64,000 bases of DNA from Hyphomicrobiales bacterium (GCA_025359265.1 JANYHB010000035.1:58084-122083); one strand, 5' to 3'; positions 22,121 to 61,437 are shown, counted from the stretch's first letter. Numbers and translations: made by a program. The notes: a model not told the origin generated them from the sequence alone.

Positions 22121-22137
22121 CTGAACTGGGGATGAAC
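22121..22137 (-). promoter_or_regulatory. OmpR-type direct repeat upstream of feuN-feuP-feuQ
   Basis: Minus strand GTTCAT-N5-GTTCAG (11-bp period), with TATAGC downstream. Confidence 0.45.
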
Positions 22138-22139
22138 GG

Positions 22140-22355
22140 TCACACTTTGTCCTCGCAATAGGCTTTGCGCCTGAGGTTGTTGCGCCGAATGTCATTGATC
22201 GAAGCCGTTGTGTCATGGTGACTGGCGTAAGATAATGGCCGCCATACAAGGCACACGAGGGGTTCAGACGGGGCTGTCGCGGTCCAGCGGGTCTGGCGCG
22301 TCTGGCAGGCGCTCAAGATCAGCGCGGCCAGCAGCGCCAAGGCGATTTTGTTCAT
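22140..22355 (-). CDS. Outer-membrane lipoprotein, o-spanin (Rz1-like)
   Basis: MNKIALALLAALILSAC lipobox, two further Cys, GAGGA RBS; begins inside the upstream gene. Confidence 0.7.
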   Translation of the reverse strand: MNKIALALLAALILSACQTRQTRWTATAPSEPLVCLVWRPLSYASHHDTTASINDIRRNNLRRKAYCEDKV

Positions 22356-22482
22356 GGCGTAAATCCTCCTCGCGTTGCATGGCAGCACCAATGTCGCGCT
22401 CCTGCGCCCTGTCTTGGCTGGCGGCGCGCCCTTGAAATAATTTGAGCAAGCCCGCACAGATTTCCAGAAATAGGCGCAGCAT
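22264..22482 (-). CDS. Putative i-spanin (Rz-like)
   Basis: Hydrophobic N-terminus MLRLFLEICAGLLKLF, charged helical body, Pro/Asp tail; 92-nt overlap with the lipoprotein. Confidence 0.6.
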   Translation of the reverse strand: MLRLFLEICAGLLKLFQGRAASQDRAQERDIGAAMQREEDLRHEQNRLGAAGRADLERLPDAPDPLDRDSPV

Positions 22483-22484
22483 GT

Positions 22485-22664
22485 TTACTTAATCGTCTTG
22501 CCAGTCTTATTGGTGTGCACAGACCAAACGGCGGTCAACAGTGCGATAAAGCCTGTTGCCACGGCAGCATAATCGCCCGTGGGTAATATGCCCTTGCCCA
22601 CAAGGTATGCGATGGCCGGAGGGAAAATGGCGCGGACAATGCCGCCAATCATGTCGGAATTCAT
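22485..22664 (-). CDS. Putative holin, 59 aa, two TM segments (not in the ORF track)
   Basis: Manual translation MNSDMIGGIVRAIFPPAIAYLVGKGILPTGDYAAVATGFIALLTAVWSVHTNKTGKTIK; AGGTG RBS; basic C-tail; lies between endolysin and spanins. Confidence 0.7.
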   Translation of the reverse strand: MNSDMIGGIVRAIFPPAIAYLVGKGILPTGDYAAVATGFIALLTAVWSVHTNKTGKTIK

Positions 22665-22710
22665 AAGGTCACCTACGATATTGTAATGCCGGAAGCCGTC
22701 CGGCGCGGGA

Positions 22711-23181
22711 TTAGAAATGCGCGGCTTGAAAGTGCATGCGGTCCCGCGGTAAATTCACCCAGCCCTCGGCAGCAAAGGCCTTTAAAACTTCGTCACAAAA
22801 CCGTGGTGAAGTGCGCCCCATGGGAAATCGTTGTGGGGCTAAATCAATCGCGCACCCATAAGCGTGCATCGACAAATGGTTTGAACCGCGCATCCGTCTG
22901 AAATTAAATGAGCCACCAAATTCAGAAACGCCCCACGCATCAATCTTCCTCTGCTCTTGGCCAGACGCCAGCCAAATTGCTTGCAACACGCGCAGCAAAC
23001 TATCTGCACATTTGCGGTGGATTGTGATGTGTGCAACCGGCGTACCCATAAAGTGCATCGCAAAGGGCGGCGTTACATGCGTGAGGTTTTGCGCTTTCCA
23101 CAGCATAGCAGCCTTGCCGTCAGGCCCACGCGGATTTCCATAGAAGGCATCTGCCTCCGATTGTTTGGGCCAGTCAATCAT
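22711..23181 (-). CDS. M15-family peptidase endolysin
   Basis: FNFRRMRG, SMHAYGCAID and DRMHFQ zinc-ligand motifs; no signal peptide. Confidence 0.88.
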   Translation of the reverse strand: MIDWPKQSEADAFYGNPRGPDGKAAMLWKAQNLTHVTPPFAMHFMGTPVAHITIHRKCADSLLRVLQAIWLASGQEQRKIDAWGVSEFGGSFNFRRMRGSNHLSMHAYGCAIDLAPQRFPMGRTSPRFCDEVLKAFAAEGWVNLPRDRMHFQAAHF

Positions 23182-23190
23182 GTTTTGCTT

Positions 23191-23409
23191 TCAGGATTTG
23201 ATAACAGAAAAAACGCGCAGGGCGTGTTCAAGTGCCGCTCCCAAAGTGGTGGCTAAGCCAATCGTCACCACCAAAAGCCGCCATCCGCCGCGAGCGCTGG
23301 TCACCGCATCGCGAATTTCGCGGATGTCGCTGCGTACAGCCTGCAACTCATGTTCAACGGCTTCCATGCGCGCCTGCAAATTGCCCAGTTCGCGTTCAAT
23401 GGATGTCAT
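23191..23409 (-). CDS. Small coiled-coil plus C-terminal TM protein in the lysis region
   Basis: Heptad-rich N-terminus, then GGWRLLVVTIGLATTLGAAL. Confidence 0.6.
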   Translation of the reverse strand: MTSIERELGNLQARMEAVEHELQAVRSDIREIRDAVTSARGGWRLLVVTIGLATTLGAALEHALRVFSVIKS

Positions 23410-23411
23410 GT

Positions 23412-24302
23412 TCACCACGCTTGAATGATCACCAGGCCGCCACCGCCGGTTCCACCGATGCCGCCACCGCCGCCACCGCCGCCAGAGCCTATCGCGCCGC
23501 GCCCGCCATTGCCGCCACTGGCTGCGTTGGATGCGCCGCCACCAGCCCCGCCCGAGGTTCCGAATGGCTTCGACGACAGAAAGCCGTCGCTGCCATTGTT
23601 GCTGCCGGCGGCGGCGCCGTTAATTGTGGGGAACCAACCGCCACCCGTAATGGCCCCACCCGCGAAGTCAGCACTGGTGGTGCCACCACCGCCGGCGCCA
23701 CCGCAAATCTGCACGGAATTGCTGCCCCAAACCACTGCCGCTCCAACGCCGCCCGCAACCGCACCGCCCGCCCCACCGCTCACCCCCGGCGAGGTACTAA
23801 AGCTGCCTAAATTAAGCATCGTTGTCATGCCGATTGATGTGGCCCCGGCCCCTGCGGTGCCAACAGCCGCCGCCGAGCCGCCGCCGCCGCCCACTGCACC
23901 GGTGCCCCCGCCGATCACTCTATTTTGCGCCAACAAATCAGGCCGTACCGCCACCGCTGACGTGCCGCCGTTGCTGCCCGCCACTCCAGCGGCTCCCACG
24001 GCTCCGCCAAGGCCCACATTGATATACAGTGGGTCAGGCAAGGCGCCCAACACCTCGTCCACGAAGGAAATCGAGGTGCGGTGAATGGCGCCGCCACCGC
24101 CACCGCCGCCGCCGCCCCGCGCACTGCCCGCCGTTGCACCAAAGCCACCGCCGCCGCCTGCACCCGCGCTGATGCAGATAATTTCAACGTGGCTTTTGCC
24201 GCGTGGCCTGGTCCACGTCTGCCAATCGCCAGCACCTTGCGCATAGAAAACCTGCGCCTTTGCACCGTTTTTAGAATTGGGAATATGTGAAAAATCCAGC
24301 AT
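23412..24302 (-). CDS. Glycine-rich tail-fibre/tail-associated protein
   Basis: WTRPRG...IICISAGAGGGGG and C-terminal GGGGLVIIQAW, typical of phage glycine-rich domains. Confidence 0.7.
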   Translation of the reverse strand: MLDFSHIPNSKNGAKAQVFYAQGAGDWQTWTRPRGKSHVEIICISAGAGGGGGFGATAGSARGGGGGGGGGAIHRTSISFVDEVLGALPDPLYINVGLGGAVGAAGVAGSNGGTSAVAVRPDLLAQNRVIGGGTGAVGGGGGSAAAVGTAGAGATSIGMTTMLNLGSFSTSPGVSGGAGGAVAGGVGAAVVWGSNSVQICGGAGGGGTTSADFAGGAITGGGWFPTINGAAAGSNNGSDGFLSSKPFGTSGGAGGGASNAASGGNGGRGAIGSGGGGGGGGIGGTGGGGLVIIQAW

Positions 24303-24727
24303 CAGTATTGCCCGCCGATCACCGACACTTGATAGCCAGCCGCGACCGCCGTTCCCAACGTAACATTGAGTTTATAACCGGCAGGCAAAACAAAATTCAG
24401 CGGCAACACAAGATCAGGCTGCGCGGAAATTTCAGTTAGCGTTGAGGCTGGCAGCGTTAGCTCGGCAATCAACGAATTATTGGCCGCCGTGGTGTTCACC
24501 CCGCCATTGTTGATGAACACGCGCAGCACCGTTGCCACATTCGTCCCCAAAGTGCGGGCCACAAGTTTTTGCAAAAAGTTGCCGGCGTTGTTGCCCACGT
24601 TGTTGCCGGTGGCAATCGTGGTTACCACACCGGTTCCATCTTTGGCGGTGTTTGCGGCGGTTAGAGCTGCGGCACCCCATTGAATGGAACCAAGCGTTGA
24701 AAAAATCGGTTGGGTATTGGCTGGCAT
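24302..24727 (-). CDS. Hypothetical phage tail-associated protein
   Basis: 141-aa beta-rich ORF (MPANTQPIF...VIGGQY) coupled between the fibre genes. Confidence 0.55.
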   Translation of the reverse strand: MPANTQPIFSTLGSIQWGAAALTAANTAKDGTGVVTTIATGNNVGNNAGNFLQKLVARTLGTNVATVLRVFINNGGVNTTAANNSLIAELTLPASTLTEISAQPDLVLPLNFVLPAGYKLNVTLGTAVAAGYQVSVIGGQY

Positions 24728-24736
24728 TTGAATCTC

Positions 24737-25996
24737 CTAATTCATGATGAGAAAATTGGCGGCCATCTGGCCCTGCAGATTGATGGCAACTTGCATTTGA
24801 TCCACCGTTAAATCCGCAGGTGCTGCGACAACCGCAGTATTGTTTGCCTTGAAAGTAAACGCGGCCATGGGGGCAAGCTTGGCATTGCCCACCACGCCCG
24901 CCGCAATCGTCAGGGCCAGTGATCCGGCCGCATTGGTCACATCGCCCGTGTGGGCAGGCTCTTGGGCGGCTTGCAGCGTGCCAATAACTTGGGTGGTTAA
25001 ATTCACTGAAGCCGCTATGGCCAATGCGCCAAGGCCTGAAACGTCAGTTGCAGCAATCGCAAGCAAGGCTTTCACTTGCGCTGCTGTCAAAGCCAGTGGC
25101 GTGGCTGATGCAACCGAGTTGTTTCCCAAAATACTGTTGGCCGCCATATTTGCCATCTTCGGCAAACTCACGGCTGCATTGGAAAGCGTCACCGCACCCG
25201 TGGCTGTGTTGATGGTGGCGTCGCCAGAAGCGGTAAAGCCGCCAAACGCGGTGCCATTTTTGTATTGTATTTGGCCAGACGTGCCGGCCGCTGCGCCACT
25301 GCCCGCGGCATCGACATATTGCTTCGTGGCAACGCCCAGGGGATCAGTCGGGTTGGCAAATACTTTGGCCAAGCCCGAGCTTGCATCAACAATAATACCT
25401 TCCTTCCACAACGCGCCATCAGGGCTCACCTTGATGTGAAAGCTGTCATCGCCCGTCGCACCCAACTCAGCGCGGCCAGAAAATCCGGTTTGATAAAGCA
25501 GACTTGCCGTATCTGCTAAAGCATTTTTATTGAACTTCAGCTGAATCCCATTGCCAACGTTGTTGAACAAAACCGCTGAAGAACTCACAGCCAGTTTATT
25601 GATGGCATCAGCCGTGGCATTAACGCCCAAGAGGCTCATGTTCTGCAAAATTTGCGGCACGGGAGGTGCCACCCAGTTTACGCCATCATAGATCAGGAAA
25701 ATATTTTCGGCCTCAACCCACAGCGCCCAGCCTTTGCGCGGCGTCAAAAATTGCCAAAGTCCGGCGTTACGAAAGGCAATCAACCCGGCCTGCCCTAACC
25801 ATTCAGCAAGGGGTGCCGCCCCAATCAGAAAGCGATTGCCGTCAATGTACGTGCCGGGCGGCGCATTAAGGCCACGGGAAATAACTGACAGCTGCAATAG
25901 TCCATCAATCAACGCCAGGGCATCGTTATGCGGCACATGTTTCTGCGCCTGGTTTGCCAAAATATAGGGCAACGCCAGATTGGGAGAATTAGGCAT
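24737..25996 (-). CDS. DUF2793-domain tail fibre protein with C-terminal repeats
   Basis: NLALPYILANQAQKHVPHNDALALIDGLLQ; overlaps the megatron stop. Confidence 0.85.
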   Translation of the reverse strand: MPNSPNLALPYILANQAQKHVPHNDALALIDGLLQLSVISRGLNAPPGTYIDGNRFLIGAAPLAEWLGQAGLIAFRNAGLWQFLTPRKGWALWVEAENIFLIYDGVNWVAPPVPQILQNMSLLGVNATADAINKLAVSSSAVLFNNVGNGIQLKFNKNALADTASLLYQTGFSGRAELGATGDDSFHIKVSPDGALWKEGIIVDASSGLAKVFANPTDPLGVATKQYVDAAGSGAAAGTSGQIQYKNGTAFGGFTASGDATINTATGAVTLSNAAVSLPKMANMAANSILGNNSVASATPLALTAAQVKALLAIAATDVSGLGALAIAASVNLTTQVIGTLQAAQEPAHTGDVTNAAGSLALTIAAGVVGNAKLAPMAAFTFKANNTAVVAAPADLTVDQMQVAINLQGQMAANFLIMN

Positions 25997-28900
25997 TCAT
26001 CGTCCTTTCAAGAATGGCACCTTGGCCAAACACTTGGCTGGTTTGCGAAACGCGCGCGGTGAGGGCAATTGGCCCCGCGCCAAAATCGGTCAAAATGTCG
26101 GCGGCAAGGTAAACATATGAAGGCGTTGCCGTTTGGATGCTGCGCTTCACCACGCCGGCCTTCACAATGTCGAGCCGGTAACTCTCGAGTGTTTCCGAAA
26201 GCGGCACCTCGGCCACTTCCCAACTGTCACCATCCACGCGCGTGCGCCTGATCCAGCTGATGATCAGCCCCGCAGGATCTTTCTTCACCTGCAAATATGT
26301 GGGAGGCAAGGGTCGCAGTGCCCGCAGGCCGCCGGGATAAACGATCTCCACATAAGCCGAATTTCCATAATCCACCTGTGATGGCCCAATGCGCCACGTG
26401 GCCCCTTGGCCCGCTTCACTCACTGTCATGGCGGGCTGGGTTAAAGCCGCGTTCAGCAAAACCGCAGTTTGGCCTGAGGGCCGCGTGGATAGCATCTCCG
26501 GCTCTGACCCCGCCTGCGCCCGCAACAGGCCCGAAAGCCTGTAGGTATTTGCGGCAATCAGTGTGGCATTCTGGAACTGCACAATCTCAAAGCCATTGGC
26601 ACCTGTTCCAATCGCCAAGGCGTTGCCACCGCTCAACAATGCGTCGCGATCAATGGATGAAAATGTGCCGCTGCGCAGTTGCACATCGAGCGTTTGATTA
26701 AAATCAACGCGCCCCGTCAATCCTGCATTCAGCGCCGTCAGCGTTGAACCAACGGTGGCCGCCTGATTGATCAATTGGTTGAATGCAAAACTGGCCGCGC
26801 CGGTTTTCTTGAAAATCGCATCACTGCCCGGCCAAGGCGTGGCTTGCACCGCAAGGCGCGGAGCAGCAGCGTTGCTCGAATCTGCCAAAGCCAAATCCAT
26901 CATCACAACTTCCGCCGGCCCGTAAATCGCCGGCATCGGCGTGGTTATTGGCCGTGTTACACCTGAGGGGCCATCAATCACCGCGTTATCTTGCGCCACG
27001 GCTTCAATCTTGCGTGTGGCCCCCGCCAAAATGCTCTTGATGCGCCAACGATCAGCATTGATCTGCACAATATCGCCAGGCTCAATGGCTTCCCAATGGG
27101 GTGGCAATGCAAATTGTGCTGTGGTGCGGGCGGCCCAGGCATCAGCCAATAAATAATCGGCTCGCGCTTGTGCCTGATTTTGTGGAATGGCTACGGCAAA
27201 GTTAATGCCAATTTCGTTTTTGCTGGAGGTGGCGCTGCGCCATTGTGCAACGGCCGCTTGGCGGTAGTCCAATCCACTTTCCATATAGGCCAGATGAACG
27301 GCCACCGGCAAATCCGTTTCCTGCGCCCGGTGCATCGTGATCAAAGCCGATGCTTTGGCATCGTCGATTAAATCTGTGGGCGGCACGCTGATGCTGGCGG
27401 TGCGCTGCCTGCTGGTGAATTTGAGCTGGCCGACACTTTCAACTGCGTTGATGCCATAGACATTCAACACGGTTTCCAAGGCTTCACGTGCAGACATTTG
27501 CTTGTCCAGCACATAACCATCAATCAAGCCTTCCACCGCGCTTACATCACAATCAGTCAGGCTAAAACGCGCCGCAATGGCGCTGATAACACTTGCCAGA
27601 TCAAGGCTGCCAACGCGCCCGTTCAGCCAATGGCCGCGCGCGTAATTTCCGGCATCGCCCCACACATCGCTGCGCGCCGGAAAAGCCGGATAGGGCCTTG
27701 CGTCCCAACACCAGATTGAAGTGCGAGAAACATCCAGCATCGGGGCACCATAGAGCGCTGAAATAGGATTTTGGGCTGGGCCGACATTCCAATAATCCAA
27801 ACTGGCCCTTATAAAGGCCAGTTGAATTTGCGTGTCAGATTGTGCTCCGGAATAATAGGGCACCGTGCTTTCGGCAGATTTCGGATCAACAAATACATTG
27901 GGCTGATTGGTGCCTTTGTCGATGGCGGCACAGCCAATCTCGGTAAACCAGATGGGTTTGGATTGGGCAATCCAACTGCTGGCTGTCGCGCTTTCCACGC
28001 CGCTTGGTCGGTTAAAATGCGCGTTGCTCCACCAGCTTTTTAAATCCTTGGGGCGAAACACCCATGGCTTGTTGTAAGCGCCATCGGTTATGGGCCTGCG
28101 CAGTTGTGCGTCGCGTGCCGCCTGGTTTGCATAATACCAATCATAAAGTTCGCCACCGGCAATGCGTGATTGCAAGTAGGTGCGATCATAAATCGAGCGT
28201 GTGCCCGCAATATAATCTAAATGCGCCGTGCCATCGCGCCAGTCGCTCAGCGGAAAATAATTATCAATGCCGACGAAATCCACGTTGAGCGAAGACCACA
28301 GGGGGTCGAGATGGAAATAAACATCGCCGCTTCCATCGCTCGGTTGATAGCCGAAGTATTCGCTCCAATCCGCCGCATAAGAAATCTTCGCCGCGGGCAA
28401 AATGGATTTCACGTCAGCGGCTAAAGTTTGCAGTGCTGCAACAAAGGGAAAGGTGCCGGCGGCTGAGCGCAACGTGGTGAGCCCACGCAGTTCACTGCCA
28501 ATCAAAAACGCATCAACCCCGCCCGCCAAGGCACAAAGTTTTGCATAATGCAAAATCATGCGGCGATAGCTCCATTCGCTGCCCGCAAAGGTTACGGTGT
28601 CCAAGCCATTCACAAATTGTGCGGCCGTGGCGGTGCCTACAAAACTGGCGATTTCTGTGGCGAGTGCAGAAGTTTTATCCGGCGTGCCTGAAAGGCCTGG
28701 GGCTTTTGAGGCGGTGATGCGCCCGCGCCATGGATAGGCTGCCTGCGCGGCTGCGCCATAGGGATCAGGCAAGGCATTGCCGGATGGAATATCCATCAAG
28801 ATGAAGGGATAGAACATCACCTTCAACCCACGCGCCCGCAAATCCTGAATGGCGTGGATCACTGAGGCATCAGATGGTGTGCCGCCATAGGCCGCGTTGC

Positions 28901-29858: not shown

Positions 29859-30292
29859 TATTTTATCTCAGTCGGAAATCGATAAGCAAAGGCCAATCAC
29901 GAAAGCCACCAATGCGCCAGCGGCACTTCACTCACGGCCACACCCTCTTGCGCGTGGATCATGGTGGAACGGCTCGTTGCTATGCCTGCGTGCTTGGCGG
30001 GAAGATGTGGCTTCCAACGGAACAACAACACATCGCCCGCTTCAAAAACCAATGGCGGAATCTCAATTAAATGCCTTCGACCCGCATCAGCCAACGTTTC
30101 TTCCAAGCCAGCCTCGGCCCAATCAGGCGCATAGGCGGGTGGCACCTCTGGTTCGGCTCCCAAGGCTTCGCGCCAAATTCCGCGCACCAGGCCCAGGCAA
30201 TCGCAGCCCATGCCTTTTAAACTCGCTTGGTGTTGATAAGGCGTGCCAAGCCATCCTCTGGCCAGGTCAATGATTGAAGGTTTTATCATCAT
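29858..30292 (-). CDS. GTA NlpC/P60 peptidase (g14-like) with an in-frame TGA at 29897-29899
   Basis: WLGTPYQHQAS, GCDCLGLVRG, KHAGI; the frame continues after the TGA as LAFAYRFPTEIK to a TAA overlapping the g15 ATG. Confidence 0.85.
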
Positions 30293-31167
30293 CAGCGTTT
30301 CAAGCCGTTGTTGTTTGGGTCGCTCTTGGCGGCAACACTCGCCACAAAATCATTGCCCGGCATATGCGGGAAGCCGCGAAAATTAACCGCGTTGGAAAAC
30401 TTGGCACGGCAGGTTTCAATCTGCTTGTCGCAGCCTGCGACCAAGCTAACTTGCTCGCCCACAGCCACGCTGAATTTGGGAGACATCCACAATTCAATGC
30501 GAACCGGTGCGCCGGAGCGGTGCCGCTTGATATCAACTTGCCTGCCGATGTTCGGCGCACTTAAAAATCGCAGCGTACCCTTGCTGAACCAGTCATCGGC
30601 AAAGGCACTTAGGCCGCTGACGTCAAAACCACTTTCACGCACGGCGGAAAGCGTTGCCGTTGCCGTAAAGTTCGAACTGTTCACGCCACAGCGCGCATCA
30701 CCCAGCAAAGCATCACAACCGTGATGATAAAGCCGGCCTTTTTTCTGGTTCATCAAATGCGCCAGCCCACGCACCTCGGCTTTGAAAGCGCCCTGGCCAA
30801 AAGTCACTTCCCCCAAATGGCCTTTGCGTTCCAGCGTGCGCTGCGTGGCATCTTGCCAATTCACTTTCCACACTTCAATTTGCGCGTGGTCAAAATCTCC
30901 CGATGCAATCGGGCTTTCTGAAAGTTTGCCTGAACTCAAAGCACCTGAGGCTTCAAGATTGTCGACACTTAAGCCCAGGGACGATTGAATTTCAGTTGCA
31001 CTAAATCCGGCCTGTGCTTCAAAGGATGTACCATCAAAAATCACCGCAACATCGTGATCCGTAAAGCCCAGTTTCTCGCCCGTGGCCAAGGTCAAACGCC
31101 AGCAATAACAAAGCGTTGTAAGCCCCGTTTGAAGGTGTGCTTGAAGGGCAGGATCAAGCACTCTCAC
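30292..31167 (-). CDS. GTA baseplate hub protein (DUF2163, g13-like)
   Basis: LGFTDHD, CDALLGDARCG, GCDKQIETCRAKFSNAVNFRGFPHMPG. Confidence 0.93.
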   Translation of the reverse strand: MRVLDPALQAHLQTGLTTLCYCWRLTLATGEKLGFTDHDVAVIFDGTSFEAQAGFSATEIQSSLGLSVDNLEASGALSSGKLSESPIASGDFDHAQIEVWKVNWQDATQRTLERKGHLGEVTFGQGAFKAEVRGLAHLMNQKKGRLYHHGCDALLGDARCGVNSSNFTATATLSAVRESGFDVSGLSAFADDWFSKGTLRFLSAPNIGRQVDIKRHRSGAPVRIELWMSPKFSVAVGEQVSLVAGCDKQIETCRAKFSNAVNFRGFPHMPGNDFVASVAAKSDPNNNGLKR

Positions 31168-31790
31168 AGCCGCACCTCAATCAAGGGGATGGACGGAATA
31201 TCGCCCGCTGCAAAATGGGCCAGATTGATTTTGATCTCGTCGGTATCAAACCGCACCGGCACATCAAATTCAAAACCCGCCGCGATCACCGCGCCATTGG
31301 GCGGAATGCTTCCAGCGTTAAAGGTTATCAATCCCGTGGTCACATCCACGCTGAACTGCGTTGTCGCAACGCCGTTCAGGCTCACTAACAAGGTGCCTGC
31401 AACAGGTGCCGTCACAGGCCGTGCCCACGGGCGCGCTGTGCCGTAATTTTTCACCAGTTGAAAGACGGCCGTTACACCATCCCCAGCACCCAGCACTTGA
31501 TCAATGGCGCTCGGCGTTTGCGATGGCTTGCAAGATTTCCAATCGGTATGATCTTTGAACCGAAACGCATAGAGCTTGCCGCGCCGCTCTTCGAAAAAGG
31601 CCACAACGGCGTGAATGTCGTCCAGTGATTTAACACCATAGCCCGCGTTATATTTGCGCCGTGAATTGGCCCAGCGGGCATTGCGTTCTTCGCGGCCTGA
31701 TGCGGTCATCACCACATCAGTGCGCCGCTCTGGTCCACCGGCCAACCCGCGTGAAATGGCCACGGGAAATCTCACATTGTCAAAAGCCAT
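31164..31790 (-). CDS. GTA distal tail protein (DUF2460, g12-like)
   Basis: VRFPVAISRG..GGPERRTDVV, AGFEFDVPVRFDTD. Confidence 0.95.
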   Translation of the reverse strand: MAFDNVRFPVAISRGLAGGPERRTDVVMTASGREERNARWANSRRKYNAGYGVKSLDDIHAVVAFFEERRGKLYAFRFKDHTDWKSCKPSQTPSAIDQVLGAGDGVTAVFQLVKNYGTARPWARPVTAPVAGTLLVSLNGVATTQFSVDVTTGLITFNAGSIPPNGAVIAAGFEFDVPVRFDTDEIKINLAHFAAGDIPSIPLIEVRL

Positions 31791-31805
31791 ATTACTGGTT
31801 CCCCG

Positions 31806-32345
31806 TCACATATTCCGCTGCGCGCGCAGCAATGCCTGGCTGATCATGGCAGACACCTGGTTTTGGCTTTGTGCAAAACTCTGCACATCAGGTGTGGAGA
31901 TATTCACCGTCACATTCATGCCGCCGCCGCCGCGAATTCCCAGCGAGCCATCAGCGCCGCGTGCCAAAGGCATGATGGCTTCCGGGCCCGCTTCTCCCAT
32001 CAATCCCGTTCCGCCGTTCATGGCAAAAAGTGTTGGTGAATTCACAATGCCACCATCGGCAAAGGGCATAACACTGCCGCCAGAAAATACGTTGCCCTTG
32101 GCGTTGGCGAACAGCCCGCCGATCAATCCTGCCAAAGGCTTCAACGCCGCAGTCAAGGCGGTTTGACTGAGGCTTAACACCATGCCTTTCAAGATGTCAG
32201 AGAGGCTTTTTCCGTGCACCACTGCACTGGCCAGGCCCGTCACCAACTTATTGCTGAAGGTGTCTGCAAGAGTGGAAAGGTCTTCCATCTGGGCTCGCAG
32301 TTCTGCCGCGGTTTGGGAGAGATCAGTGGCTTGATTCTGGTTCAT
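31806..32345 (-). CDS. Short tape measure protein (g11-like)
   Basis: 179 aa; FADGGIV, GLMGEAGPEAIMPLARGADGSLG. Confidence 0.9.
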   Translation of the reverse strand: MNQNQATDLSQTAAELRAQMEDLSTLADTFSNKLVTGLASAVVHGKSLSDILKGMVLSLSQTALTAALKPLAGLIGGLFANAKGNVFSGGSVMPFADGGIVNSPTLFAMNGGTGLMGEAGPEAIMPLARGADGSLGIRGGGGMNVTVNISTPDVQSFAQSQNQVSAMISQALLRAQRNM

Positions 32346-32523
32346 CGGGGAATAAATCCATCAGGGTTAAAAGGTTCTGGCGCAGCATGGGTTGGGGAGG
32401 GGCACCCATTGCCGCAGCAAGTTCACGCGGCGTGCTGCGCCAGAATTCAGCGGGGGCCAGATGCAATCGGTCAAAGCCAATGTGCATCATGCGCGCCCAG
32501 GGAAATTTTTGGGGTTCGCTCAT
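32323..32523 (-). CDS. Tail assembly chaperone (rcc01693/g10.1-like)
   Basis: FPWARMMHIG...FWRSTPREL...LMDLFPD. Confidence 0.88.
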   Translation of the reverse strand: MSEPQKFPWARMMHIGFDRLHLAPAEFWRSTPRELAAAMGAPPQPMLRQNLLTLMDLFPDEPESSH

Positions 32524-32828
32524 GCGGCAAACGTTGCCTTCAATAAATCCGCAACAATGCGCAGGAAGCCTGCAGCACCGCCCGCCACAGAAAGGCGCGC
32601 AACGTCCTCGTTCGTCAGAGTTGCACCGGCACCGCGCAGGCCAGCGCCAATCATCAAAATGGCATCGCTCGCCTTAATGCGCCCGCTTTCAAAACGCTCA
32701 GCAATGGCGATCATGTCTTCGCCGCCGTAAGCGTCTTCAATTTCGGCCAGCGCCCCAAGGGTGAGCACGAGTGTATAGTTCTGCCGGCCTAGTTCAGCTT
32801 CAATTTCACCACGATGTCTGTTGGCCAT
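32520..32828 (-). CDS. GTA-gp10 family tail chaperone
   Basis: MANRHRGEI...LTLGALAEIE. Confidence 0.92.
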   Translation of the reverse strand: MANRHRGEIEAELGRQNYTLVLTLGALAEIEDAYGGEDMIAIAERFESGRIKASDAILMIGAGLRGAGATLTNEDVARLSVAGGAAGFLRIVADLLKATFAA

Positions 32829-32891
32829 GCTACTTTTCCTGTAATCAAGCATTCTCGAAATCGCACTATTCCGCGCAAGCGGTGTGTCAGC

Positions 32892-33299
32892 TCAAGCAAA
32901 AGCGAGCAGGCCAGCGCTAACCAGGCTCAGATCAAACGTCACCTCGCCATCATGCTTGCCACCAAAATCCAGCGAAGCAATTTGAAACGGGCCCGTAACG
33001 GTGCCAAAGGCCGGAATGACAATTTGCCAATTCACAATGTTGCCGTTGAAGAAATAGCCGCGCATGGTGGCGTCAGAAGCAGCGTTCTTGAAAATACCCT
33101 GGCCTTTGATCTGTGCGGATTTCAAACCCGCCCCGGCCAATAATTCTTTCCACGCGCCGGTGGAGTCTTGTGATGAGGCGTCCACCACTTCGGAATTAAA
33201 GGTCAAGGTATTGGCACGCAGCCCGGCCACGGTGATGTAAACGCCAGCGCCGGTTGAATCAACTTTCAGTAAAAGATCTCGGCCCTTTTGTGCGGCCAT
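32892..33299 (-). CDS. Major tail tube protein (g9-like, TP901-1 type)
   Basis: MAAQKGRDLLLKV...WKELLAGAG. Confidence 0.95.
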   Translation of the reverse strand: MAAQKGRDLLLKVDSTGAGVYITVAGLRANTLTFNSEVVDASSQDSTGAWKELLAGAGLKSAQIKGQGIFKNAASDATMRGYFFNGNIVNWQIVIPAFGTVTGPFQIASLDFGGKHDGEVTFDLSLVSAGLLAFA

Positions 33300-33311
33300 G
33301 GCGGTTCTCCA

Positions 33312-33719
33312 TTATTGCGGTTCAGTGGCAGCGCGAAAGCGCATCGTGGCGGTGAAATAGTCGGCGGCTTTCTGGCGCGTTGCGGAAATGAAAACGCACC
33401 GCAAATTCACTAAGTTGTGGCCGTTTAAAATAAGAGCCGCGCCATCAAGTGCTGTTTCAATTTCCTGGATGATGCTCTGCACTTGTGCGCGGCTGCGGCT
33501 TTTGGAATTTACATCCAGAGCCACAAAGGTTTCATGGGCCTTTTGATCGGCCACACTCCAATCGCGGGTTTCAATCGCGCTAAAGGCCACGTTGGGTACC
33601 GTGGCGCCGCGTGGCAGCTCGTCATAAATATGCGCGCCGCCCAATAATGAGGTGAGCGTGGTTCGCGCCGCAAGTGCGGCAAGCATCGCTTGTTGTACGG
33701 CAAGACCGGGTTGGTTCAT
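33312..33719 (-). CDS. Tail terminator (DUF3168, g8-like)
   Basis: 135 aa; AVQQAM.AAL...IYDELPRGA...MRFRAATE. Confidence 0.88.
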   Translation of the reverse strand: MNQPGLAVQQAMLAALAARTTLTSLLGGAHIYDELPRGATVPNVAFSAIETRDWSVADQKAHETFVALDVNSKSRSRAQVQSIIQEIETALDGAALILNGHNLVNLRCVFISATRQKAADYFTATMRFRAATEPQ

Positions 33720-34285
33720 GCCATCCTCGCATTGCGGTAAGCGGCCAAAGCTTCAAGCGCGGTGGCAGGAATAGTGCCGCCTGATGCATCGCCGCGGTTT
33801 TGATACCAATCGGCAACCGTGGCCATAACGGCCAATTTTATTTCTTGCGGAACGAATGTGGCATCCACACCAAAGCCTGCTGTAAAGGATAATTTCAAAC
33901 CGTTGATCGCGCGGGCTGGTTGCGTAAACACCCGGCCTTGCCGAAGCGCAACGCGCGACGGCCGCGTTCCCACATCCAGAAAATAAGCAGTCGGGTCAAT
34001 CGCGGTGGCCGTGTCGTCATCGGCATAAGATGTCAACCCATCAACTGATTGAACGGGCCACAGCGGAATTTTAAAGATCCGATCAATCGGCCAAGCATCA
34101 GCAAACAGTGCCCAGCTTTGCCGCATCAGGCAAAGGCCATAGCGGCTTTCAAGGGCGCGGCGCGCCGCACTGATGAGTGATGTCAGGTAAGCGTCGTCAT
34201 CAGCGATATAGATGCGCAGTTGCGCCTTCACATCGGCCAGCACAACGGGTTCCGCGCTCGGCGGAGTGGTGAGAATGAGAGCCAT
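33716..34285 (-). CDS. Head-tail connector/adaptor (g6-like)
   Basis: TPPSAEPV.LADVKAQLRI...FTAGFG...VPQEIKLAV...ADWYQNR. Confidence 0.9.
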   Translation of the reverse strand: MALILTTPPSAEPVVLADVKAQLRIYIADDDAYLTSLISAARRALESRYGLCLMRQSWALFADAWPIDRIFKIPLWPVQSVDGLTSYADDDTATAIDPTAYFLDVGTRPSRVALRQGRVFTQPARAINGLKLSFTAGFGVDATFVPQEIKLAVMATVADWYQNRGDASGGTIPATALEALAAYRNARMA

Positions 34286-34303
34286 GGCAATTCCTGAGAA
34301 AAG

Positions 34304-34342
34304 GCGAATGGCGAACAAGGGGTTTTCTCACTCGCCACTCGC
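34304..34342 (-). terminator. Hairpin after the capsid gene, possible terminator/attenuator
   Basis: GCGAATGGCGA / TCGCCACTCGC arms (one mismatch); CTTTTCT follows on the minus strand. Confidence 0.4.
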
Positions 34343-34348
34343 GGTTTT

Positions 34349-35551
34349 TTATGACACGTCGAACTTCAACATCTTGATGGCATCGAAATCCTGTATGCCG
34401 CCACCCACGCGCTTGGTTACATAGAAAAGCACGTAAGGCTTGGCCGTATAGGGGTCACGCAAGATGCGCACACCAATCCGGTCAACCACCAAATAGCCGC
34501 GACGGAAATCGCCGAAGGCAATGCCGAAAATGCCGGTCGCAATGTCGGGCATGTATTCGTTTTCCGTCACCGCAAAGCCCATCAACGTGGGCTTGCCATC
34601 GGCAGCCATCGCCGGTTGCCAGATATATTCATTCTGGTTGTCTTTGAATTTGCGGATCTGCGACTGGGTGTTGCGGCTCATCATGAAGCGGCCGTTGGCA
34701 CGGTAACCCGCCTTCACGGCATAAGCCAGATCAAGCAACTTGTCAGATGGCGCAACCGCCGGCCAACCGCCAGCGATACCCGTGGCGATGTAACCGGTGT
34801 TGCCCCAAGCCCAAGACGCTTGTGCCACTTTCGGATAAGTCAGCAAACCTTTGGGTGCGGTAATGCCGTCGCCATTGGTGAAGGCGTTGGTCTCCTGCTC
34901 GCCAAACACCACCTGCACTTCGCGCGCCATCCAATCATCAATGTTGACGATCGAGTCATCCAGCAAAGCCTGCGTTGCCGCCGGCATGGCATAGAGTTCC
35001 ATCGTCTGGAATGACAAGTTGGCCAAGGTGGCCGAGGTGGTTTGGGGCCGCGAGGCCGTTTCACCAATCCATCCGGCTTGATGGCCATTGGTATTGAAGG
35101 GCTTGTTATGCACGAAGGCCGAAACCTGGCGCACGTCACAAAACTCACGAAATGGTGAAGCCTTGGATATCAAACGGCCAATTTCCGCTTCAGTTTCAGG
35201 TGGCACGAGATAGCCACCGTCTTGGCCAGAGCCAATCGACATGGCCTTGGCTTCCATGGTGTTGAGGGCGAAGGTGTCACCCTTGCGCACATAGGCGTCG
35301 AACGCCTTCTTGTGTTCGCTGGGTTCGATCAGCGTTGCCGCCGAAAGCTGTGGGCGGCGCGATTTCAACGTCAGATCATCAATCGCCTTGTTGATGCGAT
35401 CCACCTTTTCAGAGGTGATCACATCGGCACTCTGGCGCTTTTCAATCTGGCCCAAGCGTTCGTCATTGGCATCCTTGAAAGCTTCAAAGGCCACCAATAC
35501 ATCATCATAGTCAGCGGTGGGTGTGGCCACCTTGGTTTCTAAACTATCCAT
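34349..35551 (-). CDS. HK97-fold major capsid protein (g5-like)
   Basis: DGGYLVPPE, IAFGDFRRGYLVVDRIG, RDPYTAKPYVLFYVTKRVGG. Confidence 0.96.
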   Translation of the reverse strand: MDSLETKVATPTADYDDVLVAFEAFKDANDERLGQIEKRQSADVITSEKVDRINKAIDDLTLKSRRPQLSAATLIEPSEHKKAFDAYVRKGDTFALNTMEAKAMSIGSGQDGGYLVPPETEAEIGRLISKASPFREFCDVRQVSAFVHNKPFNTNGHQAGWIGETASRPQTTSATLANLSFQTMELYAMPAATQALLDDSIVNIDDWMAREVQVVFGEQETNAFTNGDGITAPKGLLTYPKVAQASWAWGNTGYIATGIAGGWPAVAPSDKLLDLAYAVKAGYRANGRFMMSRNTQSQIRKFKDNQNEYIWQPAMAADGKPTLMGFAVTENEYMPDIATGIFGIAFGDFRRGYLVVDRIGVRILRDPYTAKPYVLFYVTKRVGGGIQDFDAIKMLKFDVS

Positions 35552-35565
35552 TCAGTCATACTCCA

Positions 35566-36087
35566 TTAGGGTTGGGCGGTTGGTTTTTGAAAATGTGAGT
35601 CTGCCCTTGCCCGGCTGCGAGACTTCACGGCACTCACGCGCGCACCTTGCAACATGGGGAAGGTAACGAGCGATATTTCCCAAAGATCGATGTTGGTCAG
35701 AAGTCTGGCGCCCGTGGCACGATCTTTGCCTGCGCTGACGGTTTTGAACCCGATGGAAAGCCCATCAATCCCGCCGCTTTCCAAGAGTGAAAGCAGCTCA
35801 TGGCCGCGCTGCACATTTTTGTTCAGGCGGCCCATTACATAAAGACCCTTGTCGTTCTCACGCACTTCCAGCCAGCTGCCCACCGGCTCTGCCGGGTCAT
35901 GCTGAAACAACATGCGAATATCTTCGGCCGGTCGTCTTATCAGCGAGGTATGAAACGCCCCGGGCATGACAATATCGCCGGATTGATCACGCTGACCAAA
36001 CAGCGATGCATAGCCAGAAAAAACGCCAGAGCCGGAAGCGGCCGACAAAGGCACCTCCAGCCCGCGCCGTGAAAGACGTGGGGACAT
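35566..36087 (-). CDS. HK97-family prohead protease (g4-like)
   Basis: FSGYASLFG, MLFQHDP, DGLSIGF, LWEISLVTFPM. Confidence 0.95.
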   Translation of the reverse strand: MSPRLSRRGLEVPLSAASGSGVFSGYASLFGQRDQSGDIVMPGAFHTSLIRRPAEDIRMLFQHDPAEPVGSWLEVRENDKGLYVMGRLNKNVQRGHELLSLLESGGIDGLSIGFKTVSAGKDRATGARLLTNIDLWEISLVTFPMLQGARVSAVKSRSRARADSHFQKPTAQP

Positions 36088-36117
36088 GTGATCGATTTCT
36101 CTTTGTATTATTTTGGC

Positions 36118-36203
36118 CGTCATCCCCGCGAAGGCGGGGACCCAGCTCAGTTACAAGTTCTGAATCCAGTCATAGCTGGCCCCCTGCCTTCGCAGGGGTG
36201 ACG
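36118..36203. repeat. REP/RPE-like palindromic element inside the GTA cluster
   Basis: CGTCATCCCCGCGAAGGCGGGGACCCAGCT ... AGCTGGCCCCCTGCCTTCGCAGGGGTGACG, ~30-bp imperfect inverted repeats. Confidence 0.8.
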
Positions 36204-36225
36204 CTGATTAAACGGCAAGCCATGA

Positions 36226-37353
36226 TTACCGATACCCAACCGCTTGCCGCTTCTCGGCATCGGAGAGGAAGGTGGCATTGTTCACGCGCGTCCACAGCGC
36301 GTCGCGGTCGTGGCTGAGGGCTTCAACCTGGTCGAGATCCAGATCCAGCCGCAGGCCATGTTCAAATTGCGTTCCCACAAAGCCACTCAGCGCATCCGTT
36401 ACGCGGCGCACTGTGGGGATCACGGTTTGGCGCCAGAATACCCGGTTGGCTTCGGCAAAATTGGAATAGGTATTGTCACCAGGAATGCCCAACAACATCG
36501 GTGGCACGCCCAGAGCCAAGGCAATTTCGCGCGCTGCATTGTTTTTAGAATTGATGAAATCCATATCCTTGGGCGAAAAGCCCATCTCTTTCCAATCCAA
36601 GCCACCTTCCAACACCATCGGTCTTCCGGCATTGGCAGCACTTTGGAAATTGTCTTGAAGCTCAGACTTGAGGCGGTCGTATTGCTGTGGCGTTAACTGG
36701 CCATCGCCTCCGGAAAATACCAAAGCCCCGGAAGGACGGGCGGCATTATCCAGCATCGCCTTGTTCCAGGCCGCAGCGGCATTATGCGTGTCCAGGCTTT
36801 GGGCCGCCGCTTCCAGCGGTGATAGGCCGTAATAGTCGTCCAGCGGGTTGAACAGCTTAAGGTGCAAAATGTTCTCGGCTGGCAAATTTACAAATGCTCC
36901 GTTCACGGAGTATCTATAATCTTCAACCCACCCTTTGGCGCCGGGGATCACCTGCATCCGGTCTGGCCGCAAGGGCACCAGCTCGCGCGGGGTGCCATCC
37001 AAAGTTTGCACTTCCACATAAGCATTGCCCGCCACCAGAAGATAAGCCGTGATGGTTTCCAACAGTTCGCGCCGCGTCTGCGCCGGATTGGGCTGGGCCA
37101 GCAAATCCAGAAAGGCATGCGTCGCCAGCTCGACGGGCCCTTTATAAAGCAGCAACGGCACCGAAGCGACGGCCTCGGCAATCATCCGCACGCTGCGATA
37201 GGCCACCGCGTTGCCTGAAAATCCGGCGCGGGCAAAGTGTAAATAATTGCGCGGTGCCCAATAAGGTTGGCCCACATTATAGAGGCTAACCAAAGGCAAG
37301 GCGCCCACGGATTTTTTTTCGGGCGTGAAAATGGCTTGCAGTTTTTTAAACAT
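36226..37353 (-). CDS. HK97-family portal protein (g3-like)
   Basis: ILHLKLFNPLDDYYGLSPL, DNAARPSGAL, GVPPMLLGIPGDNTYSN; GGAG RBS. Confidence 0.96.
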   Translation of the reverse strand: MFKKLQAIFTPEKKSVGALPLVSLYNVGQPYWAPRNYLHFARAGFSGNAVAYRSVRMIAEAVASVPLLLYKGPVELATHAFLDLLAQPNPAQTRRELLETITAYLLVAGNAYVEVQTLDGTPRELVPLRPDRMQVIPGAKGWVEDYRYSVNGAFVNLPAENILHLKLFNPLDDYYGLSPLEAAAQSLDTHNAAAAWNKAMLDNAARPSGALVFSGGDGQLTPQQYDRLKSELQDNFQSAANAGRPMVLEGGLDWKEMGFSPKDMDFINSKNNAAREIALALGVPPMLLGIPGDNTYSNFAEANRVFWRQTVIPTVRRVTDALSGFVGTQFEHGLRLDLDLDQVEALSHDRDALWTRVNNATFLSDAEKRQAVGYR

Positions 37354-37423
37354 ATTTGCTCCTGTCCCCTCTCCGGCTAAGTGCAAGGCGTTGCATCGCA
37401 GCCTTGGCGTGGGAAGATAATAA

Positions 37424-38659
37424 CTAAACCATGCGCACCCTTGGCCCGGCCTTGCGCTTCGTAAGCACCAGTTCCGTCACCGCCCACACCAAGGCATCAA
37501 GCCGATCAGGGCTTTTGCCTTCTTCAAGGCTGGCACACATTTCATCTTCAAGGGCCGGGAATGAACCTACGTGATGCACCCTGCCCTGTTCATAAAGTGC
37601 GGCCACAGGTTCAGCCCGCAGGCGCTTGCCCACACTGGCATGCACCGCGCTGTAAGGCAGATCAGGGGCCACTTGGCGCAGCACTTGCTCTACCATGGCA
37701 CCGCCTTGGTTCACTTCAGCCACAACGCGGGAAGCGCCATGGGTTTCGTAAACCGCTTTCACTTTCTCTGCCCAACGTTTGGGGCTGGCGCGTTCCAAGG
37801 ATGCGTCGTCCAAAACATAACAGTGCCCCTCTTCACTCAAACCCACCACAACAATGCCGCAAGCATTGCTCTTGGCATGGAAGCTGGCCGGTGGATCAAC
37901 TGCCACCACCACGCGTTTCAGTGGCGGTGCATTCAGCACACGCAAGCGGTCAACATCCTCGCGTTTAAACAGCGCGTCCGGATCATCATCCAGCATCTCG
38001 CCATCAAGTTCTTGCCGGCCCAGCCGAGAGCCACCGTAACGCGCCGTTACAATCTTCAAAAACGGTTTGGCCAAATGCCCCTTGTTGTCAGCGGTGCGCG
38101 AGCGTGAGACCACGGTGGCCTCATCACTCAATAATTTTTTCAACAGCGGAATAGGTCGTGGTGTTGTCGTCACCACGGCCACCGGGTTATCACCCAGCCG
38201 CAAAGCAAACTGCAACATTTCCCACACTTTTTCGGCATGTTTCCATTTCGCTAATTCATCACACCAAGCCGCGTCAAACTGGGGCCCGCGCAAACCATCC
38301 GGCTCTTCGGCTGAAAACACTTGTGCCTGCGCCCCGTTGGGCCACGTCACCACACGCTTGGACGGCTCAAACTTCGGTCGCGCATAAGCGGGATGCACAG
38401 ACAAAAGCCCAGACACGCCCTCAATCATCACCATGCGCGCTTCAGCAAAAGTGGGGGCCACCAAGGCAATGCGCAAATTGGCCTGGCAGGCCAAGTGCCG
38501 CACAAATTCGGCACCACTTCGGGTCTTGCCACTGCCGCGCCCACCCAGCAAAAGCCACGTGCGCCAGGGGCTGTCAGGCGGAAGTTGATCCGCCCTCGCC
38601 CACAGTGGCCATTCCCACAGCAGTGCTGCCACTTCCGGCGCTGTCAAAATGCGGCTCAC
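37424..38659 (-). CDS. Terminase large subunit (g2-like)
   Basis: LWARADQLPP, GGRGSGKT Walker A, WCDELAKW, KSPDRLDALVWA; GTG start after GGAG chosen over the longer ORF. Confidence 0.93.
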   Translation of the reverse strand: MSRILTAPEVAALLWEWPLWARADQLPPDSPWRTWLLLGGRGSGKTRSGAEFVRHLACQANLRIALVAPTFAEARMVMIEGVSGLLSVHPAYARPKFEPSKRVVTWPNGAQAQVFSAEEPDGLRGPQFDAAWCDELAKWKHAEKVWEMLQFALRLGDNPVAVVTTTPRPIPLLKKLLSDEATVVSRSRTADNKGHLAKPFLKIVTARYGGSRLGRQELDGEMLDDDPDALFKREDVDRLRVLNAPPLKRVVVAVDPPASFHAKSNACGIVVVGLSEEGHCYVLDDASLERASPKRWAEKVKAVYETHGASRVVAEVNQGGAMVEQVLRQVAPDLPYSAVHASVGKRLRAEPVAALYEQGRVHHVGSFPALEDEMCASLEEGKSPDRLDALVWAVTELVLTKRKAGPRVRMV

Positions 38660-39137
38660 TGCCGCTCCCATCCGCGCCCTCGCACAGGCCCGCAATGCGG
38701 CCCGCAAGTTCATCACGCTGGGCGTCATCCAGTTGCAGATTGTCTTGGCGGCGAGAGGTACGCTGCTTGCGATCTTTTTGTTCAAGCTCAAGAACCTTTT
38801 CCAATGTGCGCACCAAAGTATTGGCCGAACGAATGTCTCGCTCATTTGAAAGCGCGTTCAATTCTTGGCCAATGGCCCCAATCTCGCCCTCCAGCTGGAT
38901 CAAACGTTTGTGTAAAATTTCTTTCAGGCGGCGCAAAGTTTGGCGCGTGGTTTCAGACTTTGCCTTGGCCGGGTTTGAACCCCGCAAAGCCCAACCCAGC
39001 GCCTTGGCCCTGCGGCTGAGGGCTTGGCCGGTCATGTCGATCGATTTACCAATCTCGGTTACAGTTTCGTGCGCCAGCTCATAGCGATCACGCAAAGCGG
39101 CCCAATCGGGCACCAAGCCTTCAGTTTGTTCTGTCAT
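38574..39137 (-). CDS. Terminase small subunit (g1 position)
   Basis: N-terminal PDWAALRDRY...LSRRAKALGW HTH-like block, coiled coil, LDDAQRDELAGRIA; immediately upstream of TerL. Confidence 0.7.
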   Translation of the reverse strand: MTEQTEGLVPDWAALRDRYELAHETVTEIGKSIDMTGQALSRRAKALGWALRGSNPAKAKSETTRQTLRRLKEILHKRLIQLEGEIGAIGQELNALSNERDIRSANTLVRTLEKVLELEQKDRKQRTSRRQDNLQLDDAQRDELAGRIAGLCEGADGSGSEPHFDSAGSGSTAVGMATVGEGGSTSA

Positions 39138-39215
39138 TGTGTCTGTAAATCCCAAGCCCGCAAGGGGCAATTTAGAGAGCCACTGATTTCTGGACCCACT
39201 TCTGGAGTATGACCA

Positions 39216-39244
39216 GACATAGGGGGTCGAGCGTACGCTGTCAA
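39216..39244 (-). promoter_or_regulatory. Candidate sigma70-type promoter of the GTA operon
   Basis: TTGACA (39244-39239), 17 bp, TATGTC (39221-39216). Confidence 0.45.
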
Positions 39245-39386
39245 GGACTATTTTCCGTATAGAGGAATTTTTTTATATCTCATTCATTTCGTTTGGCTTT
39301 TCGAAACGAAATGACGGTTTCAGCCTTCAAAACGGCAAAGTTAGCTGGCAAGAAAATTGTCATTCGCCTAAAATGAGGGGCGAAAC

Positions 39387-58731: not shown

Positions 58732-58773
58732 TTTTCAATCTTTGTGGGAGGATGCCGAAACAGGCTAATACAC

Positions 58774-61436: not shown

Positions 61437-61437
61437 A

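Follow-up and report, generated by a model that had tools for sequence, protein, structure and literature searches.

We analysed a 64,000-nucleotide stretch from a Hyphomicrobiales bacterium (GCA_025359265.1, JANYHB010000035.1:58084-122083), called here the window, which carries a cluster of head, tail and lysis genes related to the gene transfer agent (GTA) of Rhodobacter capsulatus (RcGTA). The cluster consists of 24 densely packed open reading frames (ORFs), all on the minus strand, and extends over ~17 kb from the ATG of a small terminase gene (TerS) at 39137 to the last stop codon at 22140. The host genome (2.65 Mb in 73 contigs, 99.9% complete) contains no second copy or paralogue of the cluster, and its nearest public relatives are metagenome-assembled genomes labelled Aestuariivirga sp. 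or Hyphomicrobiales bacterium. Many Alphaproteobacteria are believed to exchange genes by means of RcGTA-like clusters, of which few have been studied and, to our knowledge, none from this freshwater and glacier-stream family.

Gene content and order

The RcGTA gene order is kept: TerS, large terminase (TerL), portal, protease, capsid, adaptor, terminator, tube, two chaperones, tape measure, distal tail protein, hub, P60 peptidase and megatron. Homologues of g2, g3, g4, g5, g6, g8, g9, g12, g13, g14 and g15 are collinear on one strand (11/11). A preliminary description, made from the sequence of the window, had listed these genes with this order and strand. As each named gene was recovered by profile searches, and as four proteins (capsid, adaptor, terminator and megatron) match solved RcGTA chains in a PDB search, that list is correct; the comparison of each ORF with RcGTA proteins that it had proposed yielded both families and direct chain matches. 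The span it gave, 22140-39244, does contain the named genes, with nine further ORFs between the megatron gene and 22140 (fibre, 141- and 296-residue ORFs, a 75-residue protein and lysis genes) left off its gene list. Its upper bound is not a gene end, 39244 being the first base of a conserved -35 hexamer. The head, neck, tail and baseplate genes are as follows (aa, amino acids).

38574-39137, minus strand: small terminase, TerS-like (g1-like), 187 aa; weak match to phrog_1206 (E = 7e-5), with position and fold
37424-38671, minus strand (ORF extends to 38845): large terminase g2, T4-type; Terminase_6N, E = 2.8e-30; Terminase_6C, E = 2.1e-21
36226-37386, minus strand: portal g3; Phage_portal, E = 6.7e-91
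35566-36123, minus strand: prohead serine protease g4; Peptidase_S78, E = 2.2e-31
34349-35551, minus strand: HK97-fold major capsid protein g5; Phage_capsid, E = 4e-82; RcGTA Rcc01687 (PDB 6TB9), E = 1.3e-84
33716-34318, minus strand (likely start ATG 34285): head-tail adaptor g6; TIGR02215, E = 1e-41; Rcc01688, E = 2.9e-8, of equal length
33312-33719, minus strand: tail terminator g8, DUF3168-type; PF11367, E = 7e-26; Rcc01690, E = 0.0037, 135 aa each
32892-33299, minus strand: tail tube g9; Phage_tail_2, E = 2e-41
32520-32852, minus strand: chaperone g10; Phage_TAC_11 (GTA-gp10), E = 2e-26
32323-32523, minus strand: chaperone g10.1; Phage_TAC_6, E = 2e-16; rcc01693 family, 54.5 bits against a cut-off of 56.1
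31806-32345, minus strand: tape measure g11, 179 aa; NF058675 RcGTA_tape, E = 1e-51; PHROG tape-measure matches
31164-31790, minus strand: distal tail protein g12, DUF2460; TIGR02217 (Rcc01695 family), 280 bits against a cut-off of 137
30292-31167, minus strand: baseplate hub g13, DUF2163-type; TIGR02218, 291 bits against a cut-off of 80; PF09931 and PF09356
29897-30292, minus strand (ancestral frame to 29858): NlpC/P60 peptidase g14; PF00877
25989-29858, minus strand: megatron g15, 1289 aa; NF048004 GTA_megatron, 1716 bits against a cut-off of 800

The likely ATG of TerL, at 38671, overlaps the end of TerS. The tape measure aligns with positions 32-219 of the 220-position NF058675 model and scores 176 bits, below the curated cut-off of 220, while the megatron matches RcGTA g15 (PDB 6TBA/6TEH) over its full length with 1052 bits.

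Chromosomal position and inheritance

To one side of the cluster lies fdsG, and to the other feuN. Among 80 related loci, those of the clade with 60-95% capsid identity have the cluster next to fdsG-fdsB-fdsA wherever the contig extends that far, and all nine loci extended downstream (9/9, from at least 3 genera) run into feuN-feuP-feuQ. As both flanks are kept, both junctions have been fixed across divergence to ~38-50% megatron identity. The arrangement that the preliminary description had seen in this genome, with fdsG facing one end and a feuN regulatory repeat beside the last stop codon, is thus present here and conserved across several genera.

The genes of the cluster are under purifying selection. 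In comparisons with the two closest relatives, most structural genes have dN/dS of 0.02-0.14, and TerS and g10.1 have 0.20-0.25; the flanking fds genes have 0.04-0.11, and their dS is similar to that of the cluster, mostly 0.4-1.6. Capsid identity also tracks FdsB identity (Spearman 0.76, n = 17 loci).

Phage capsids are more distant, with true phages reaching at most 42% capsid identity. Two "phage" capsid records at 55-56% were considered as a sign of phage origin and set aside: both are metagenome records, and the one inspected, MW091529.1 (locus L104, 1-18183; "Bacteriophage sp. 103231, partial genome"), is a GTA cluster. It carries an RcGTA-like cluster that includes an annotated head closure gene; behind the cluster come a response regulator and a histidine kinase labelled "antibiotic efflux protein", and the record most likely represents a bacterial chromosome fragment. 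As its GTA cluster sits beside a two-component system, it offers no evidence for a phage origin. The closest homologues, which the preliminary description had said would refute its reading if found in intact prophages with integrase and att sites, occupy instead the same fds/feu slot in Aestuariivirga-family genomes, from 95% to ~60% capsid identity.

No tRNA gene was found in the window, nor any flanking direct repeat of at least 14 nt that could represent an att site. Likewise, no integrase, repressor or replication gene was found among 30 flanking ORFs of at least 150 aa (10 scanned with NCBIfam and 20 with Pfam), a scan that omitted five ORFs at 58549-63664 and two likely spurious ORFs; the same absences had been noted in the preliminary description. 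Among the products of the scanned ORFs are aminopeptidase N, kinases, an ECF sigma factor, a DegP-like protease, two sarcosine oxidase operons, malic enzyme and formate dehydrogenase, and some have no match. Shakya et al. 2017 (PMC5721377) describe large RcGTA-like clusters as vertically inherited and lying in a stable chromosomal region. Flanks, selection and divergence together fit a domesticated element that has evolved along with its host, as those authors report for the large clusters.

Upstream region and post-capsid hairpin

Alignment of the region upstream of TerS with that of related loci revealed a set of conserved elements, listed here together with a hairpin inside the cluster.

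39252-39268, minus strand: upstream dyad ATTCC-N7-GGAAA, from the alignment of 25 upstream regions
39216-39244, minus strand: promoter-like element, with -35 TTGACA at 39239-39244 and -10 CCTATGTC at 39216-39223, which fits the alphaproteobacterial GCTANAWC
39230-39239, minus strand: spacer dyad of 10 bp, AGCGTACGCT, between -35 and -10
39211 (start), minus strand: conserved leader CATACTCCAGAAGTGGGT, from the alignment of upstream regions
39199 (GTG) to 39134 (TGA), minus strand: 21-codon upstream ORF whose stop overlaps the TerS ATG
34304-34342, minus strand: stem-loop of 16 pairs followed by CUUUUCUC (U tract), directly 3' of the capsid gene; intrinsic-terminator-like

In 22 of the 25 related loci, GAAAATAGTCC, TTGACA, a 10-12-bp dyad, a GCTA-type -10 and CAYACTCCASAAATGGGT occur in this order; a generic sigma-70 scan did not list the promoter-like element. 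The symmetry of the spacer dyad is kept through paired changes, e.g., CACCGTACGGTG, CACCGCGCGGTG and CAGCGCGCGCTC. With regard to the 21-codon ORF, the same ATGGGT serves as the TerS start codon in more distant relatives.

The upstream dyad lies ~50 bp before the inferred transcription start, and its general form, WTTCC-N7-GGAAW, is shared with the promoter of the regulator gene gafZ (see below), both here and in two relatives. Genome-wide, there are 19 such sites against ~9 expected, those of the GTA and gafZ promoters among them. A third strong copy (C44, 26860) lies beside an ORF that reads as ABC-transporter binding-protein-like and gave no lead.

The post-capsid hairpin is predicted in each of the 35 relatives folded (35/35), at -19 to -70 kcal/mol. 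The sequences differ, often consisting of GCGAATA-type heptad repeats.

Between fdsG and TerS, relatives carry a strongly conserved LysR-type gene (72-95% identity) that is divergent from TerS (L004:5057-6031, L001:5320-6327), and the closest relative has in its place a small ORF and a PIN-domain (VapC-like) gene. No homologue of the LysR gene was found anywhere in the present genome, in which only 249 bp (39138-39386) occupy that place.

A GafZ-type regulator

The genome encodes one DUF6456 homologue of GafZ and the GafA C-terminal part, of 176 aa (132 bits against a cut-off of 26); among the control genomes, only Caulobacter gave a DUF6456 match. Caulobacter GafZ shares homology with the GafA C terminus. 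In the present genome, the gene adjoins a sufE-like gene here and in the five relatives read, with mucR nearby in some; a split gafA with sufE synteny has been described in Hyphomicrobiales (Sherlock and Fogg 2022, PMC9638019). The contig ends C34:26085-26274 and C41:27931-27983 overlap, which joins a PAS-like gene to gafZ and leaves no room for another gene there. No GafY/DnaA-like partner lies beside gafZ (elsewhere in the genome it was not searched for), the upstream gene being the PAS-like ORF, of 173 aa, which is also present in relatives. The genome search for gafA or gafYZ that the preliminary description had suggested was therefore successful for a GafZ-type gene with its sufE synteny, and not for gafY beside it.

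The gafZ promoter reads TTGACT-17-CATATA, and a dyad just before the start codon, ATTCCTATAACAGGAAT, is of the same type as the upstream GTA dyad. A further element in the spacer of this promoter, GCGTGCGC, was considered as a counterpart of the GTA spacer dyad and dropped, as the resemblance occurs in this genome and not in relatives.

Among 81 family genomes, 41 have both megatron and gafZ, none has megatron without gafZ, 18 have gafZ with megatron undetected, and 22 have neither. As the sample is phylogenetically clumped, these counts represent an association of gafZ with megatron and not proof. Three genomes of the same genus (G014, G061 and G074, one a closed 4.4-Mb chromosome) have gafZ and no detectable megatron; either the cluster was lost with the regulator kept, or the first filter of the search missed the megatron.

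Fibre and lysis genes

Downstream of the megatron gene, the cluster continues with a fibre gene, two unassigned ORFs and a lysis cassette.

24737-25996, minus strand: DUF2793 tail-fibre-like protein; PF10983, E = 4.5e-25; PHROG tail-fibre families
24302-24727, minus strand: 141-aa ORF; no Pfam or PHROG match
23412-24302, minus strand: 296-aa glycine-rich ORF (GGN repeats in the DNA); no Pfam, PHROG or PDB match
23191-23418, minus strand: 75-aa protein with an N-terminal coiled coil and a C-terminal transmembrane helix, read from sequence
22711-23181, minus strand: endolysin, M15-type zinc peptidase; Peptidase_M15_4; phrog_17001, E = 6e-24
22485-22664, minus strand: 59-aa holin with two transmembrane helices; PF23987 Phage_holin_10 (Pam3 gp28 family), 32.1 bits against a cut-off of 27
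22264-22482, minus strand: spanin-like 72-aa N-anchored protein, read from sequence
22140-22355, minus strand: spanin-like 71-aa lipoprotein with lipobox LSAC, read from sequence

The N terminus of the DUF2793 protein matches a baseplate chain of PDB 8GTC, in which chain M is named "Megatron protein". Homologues of the 141- and 296-aa ORFs are found at the same position in some relatives only. The lysis region starts with the conserved 75-aa gene, whose homologues precede the endolysin in relatives with either type of lysis module.

The usual lysis pair of the family, located after the 75-aa gene, is a C-terminally anchored GH24 (once GH19) endolysin and a GTA_holin_3TM holin. The Pfam model of this holin (PF11351) found no match in the genome, but it was silent in the control genomes too, so the search was repeated by tblastn with the relatives' GH24, GH19 and holin proteins, and again no homologue was found in the genome. 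The M15 endolysin occurs in 4 of 81 family genomes (this one and three other species of the genus), always ~2.7 kb after the megatron gene, and the Pam3-type holin is also present in all three M15-type relatives whose loci were read. The best phage matches of the endolysin have 47-48% identity (e.g., Aminobacter phage Erebus), with 36% for Pam3. The two spanin-like genes form an overlapped Rz/Rz1-like pair (phrog_1275 Rz-like spanin, E = 5e-4), and homologues were seen only in the nearest relative examined. From these gene contents, we read the usual module of GH24 endolysin and GTA-type holin as having been replaced in this subclade by a phage cassette of M15 endolysin, Pam3-type holin and spanins.

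Comparison with known systems

The cluster shares with RcGTA (rcc01682-rcc01698; PDB 6TB9, 6TBA, 6TE8 and 6TEH) the order from terminase to megatron, a short tape measure, possibly of the RcGTA_tape type, an Rcc01695-type distal tail protein and an rcc01693-type chaperone, as well as the lack of phage lifestyle genes and a GafA-family regulator encoded elsewhere. In contrast to RcGTA, the stopper gene g7 is absent, and the gap between portal and protease is 102 nt, which leaves no room for g3.5. Fibre and lysis genes, which lie at separate loci in RcGTA, are here part of the same operon. Lysis would depend on an M15 peptidase, a Pam3-type holin and spanins, without a GTA_holin_3TM-type gene, and the regulator is a short form with DUF6456 only.

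The large clusters of Hyphomicrobiales are described as vertically inherited (Shakya et al. 2017, PMC5721377; Kogay et al. 2019 as cited in PMC9638019). Shakya et al. 2017 also found homologues of rcc00171, and occasionally of rcc00555, at the 3' end of some of these clusters. The Aestuariivirga family is not named in the passages of these accounts that were consulted. One difference here is that the type of endolysin and holin has been exchanged within the genus.

The GTA of Caulobacter crescentus (CcGTA; GafYZ, IHF and LypABC; PMC9632790, PMC11150451 and PMC13236601) has a DUF6456 GafZ homologue, as does the present genome, and a putative GafZ element between -35 and -10, the place occupied here by the conserved spacer dyad. 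Caulobacter GafZ is a processive anti-terminator (same sources), and CcGTA also has a terminator-like repeat hairpin inside the cluster that would need read-through, although it follows the first gene in CcGTA and the capsid gene here. CcGTA has GafY, whereas no gafY was found beside gafZ in this genome. Finally, Caulobacter lacks endolysin, holin and spanin genes and uses the CARD-NLR-like LypABC, in contrast to the classical lysis cassette found here in cis.

Interpretation and alternatives

The cluster is most probably a vertically inherited RcGTA-type ("type I", Rhodogtaviriformidae-like) GTA cluster of an Aestuariivirga-like Hyphomicrobiales host. We infer GTA function from homology, the inheritance pattern and the linkage with the regulator. 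The preliminary description had favoured a domesticated GTA over a prophage, a view supported by the fixed slot, the purifying selection, the host-like dS and the GafZ-type regulator. Judging by its gene content, the cluster is without the means to replicate, integrate or excise. Previous publications describe RcGTA-like clusters of Hyphomicrobiales, some of which carry fibre and endolysin genes at the 3' end, and the variant features described here are not a new type of system.

In the mechanism that we propose, the host GafA/GafZ-family regulator (C34/C41, by sufE) would, in a small number of cells, turn on the near-consensus promoter that precedes TerS. Transcription would then have to cross the terminator-like hairpin after the capsid gene, for which GafZ-type anti-termination, known from Caulobacter, is the probable means. 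Both steps are suggested by the promoter elements, the shared dyads and the hairpin. By homology, the operon encodes a T4-type terminase pair, an HK97 head, a neck of adaptor and tail terminator only, a short non-contractile tail, an RcGTA baseplate and a DUF2793 fibre. Headful packaging would load the heads with stretches of cellular DNA shorter than the 17-kb cluster, and the cis-encoded lysis cassette would free the particles. More tentatively, and we consider this a possibility that is rather doubtful as a whole, the cluster could be a self-contained GTA variant under lambda Q-type late operon control, with a regulator dyad in the promoter spacer, a conserved -10-like CAYACT at the transcript start, a post-capsid terminator and a GafZ-type anti-terminator gating the tail genes and, last, an exchangeable cis lysis cassette, on a particle with a stopper-free neck.

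Several observations weigh against identification of the cluster as a GTA of this type. The gafZ gene is present in 18 family genomes with megatron undetected, which indicates that the regulator is not exclusive to the cluster, and it lacks an adjacent GafY-like partner. With head capacity taken from RcGTA, the particles are inferred to be too small for the 17-kb cluster. To these are added an apparently retained N-terminal domain in TerS, the missing stopper and a premature stop codon in g14, which are best considered together with the alternatives that they would favour.

Loss of the N-terminal domain was proposed in 2019 as a hallmark of GTA small terminases that explains random packaging, a hypothesis drawn from one GTA. 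RcGTA gp1 begins with a coiled coil, whereas the 187-aa TerS of this cluster appears, in an AlphaFold model (mean predicted local distance difference test score, pLDDT, 78), to retain an N-terminal three-helix domain resembling a helix-turn-helix (HTH), followed by a long coiled-coil helix and a disordered tail. In the model, the three-helix domain spans residues 12-46 (pLDDT ~83), ahead of the helix of 90 residues. The corresponding motif, W..IR.RYE...IA...G....L...A..GW.R, is kept in 28/28 homologues, including those from distant Hyphomicrobiales clusters, and W12, Y19, E20, G48, W49 and R52 are invariant. The top Foldseek matches of the model are all HTH domains, none of them significant (E > 0.5), and searches of PDB with the sequence and with a 28-sequence profile returned only noise, the best being the PrrA HTH domain (E = 0.04).

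Such a terminase raises the alternative of a domesticated particle that is functional without being a generalised GTA, either because pac-like recognition by the HTH-bearing TerS biases what is packaged or because the particle serves some other host purpose. The conserved domain with its six invariant residues fits this explanation, as does the absence of such a domain from RcGTA gp1, the proposed reason for random packaging. However, the motif is common to all 28 homologues, distant Hyphomicrobiales included, which makes it a lineage trait of these clusters and not a sign of phage. Furthermore, phage TerS HTH domains are able to bind DNA without sequence specificity according to the cited literature, and the fold match is not significant. 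We therefore regard this explanation as improbable.

Slightly less probable still is a dead prophage remnant, in which the head-tail and lysis genes of an old integration would persist without function and without being expressed as a unit. One observation in its favour concerns the peptidase gene g14. It has an in-frame TGA at 29897-29899, 13 codons short of the ancestral stop, where all readable relatives (~60 loci) have an Arg or His codon. Past the TGA, the frame reads LAFAYRFPTEIK to the ancestral stop, itself coupled to the g15 start. The TGA is found in this assembly only and may represent a genuine nonsense codon, a polymorphism or an error. A remnant would also fit the loss here of the divergent LysR gene of relatives, the change of the ancestral TerS start into a short upstream ORF and the lack of a stopper: g6 and g8 overlap in an ATGA with no gene between them, and PF05521 is absent from the whole genome. 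In loci whose capsid identity is 60% or more, however, the gap between g6 and g8 is 0 to -6 nt, the only exceptions being L042 (251 nt) and L046 (469 nt), as opposed to 317-1175 nt at the stopper position in more distant Hyphomicrobiales loci, one of which (MW091529) has an annotated head closure gene. As the stopper is missing across nearly the whole clade, its absence does not reflect recent decay, and as g7 lies outside the eleven-gene membership set, we do not treat its absence as excluding an RcGTA-type cluster. All remaining reading frames are intact, and over a dS of ~1 most structural genes have dN/dS of 0.02-0.14, rising to 0.25 in TerS and g10.1. The same gene order and the same genes on either side recur across genera, the promoter is kept in 22/25 loci, and the cluster has been retained although the genome is streamlined (2.65 Mb).

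An active or satellite phage with its lifestyle genes elsewhere or missed would account for a full morphogenesis set and a lysis cassette in one operon, yet it is by far the least probable of the explanations, given the lack of integrase, repressor and replication genes (among the ORFs scanned), tRNA and att repeat within ~20 kb on each side, an insertion site fixed across genera, synonymous divergence equal to that of host genes and the absence of a second copy or paralogues from the genome.

The locus adds a clear example of an element inherited over the long term with its host. Unlike the model systems, it has a stopper-free neck and in-operon lysis genes, the latter swapped for a different phage cassette within one genus. 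The TerS with a DNA-binding-like domain bears on the idea that loss of this domain makes packaging random, and the conserved promoter, together with the dyad shared with gafZ, provides concrete candidate regulatory sites.

Neighbouring sequences

The direct repeat next to the cluster, GTTCA-N6-GTTCA (22122-22137), begins 2 nt past the last stop codon and lies ~30 bp before feuN; it resembles an OmpR-family response-regulator site. No terminator-like hairpin was seen between the GTA operon and feuNPQ. Further away, the window holds two distinct sarcosine-oxidase-like operons on opposite strands (12858-16461 and 52598-57489), with alpha, gamma and DAO-type beta subunits.

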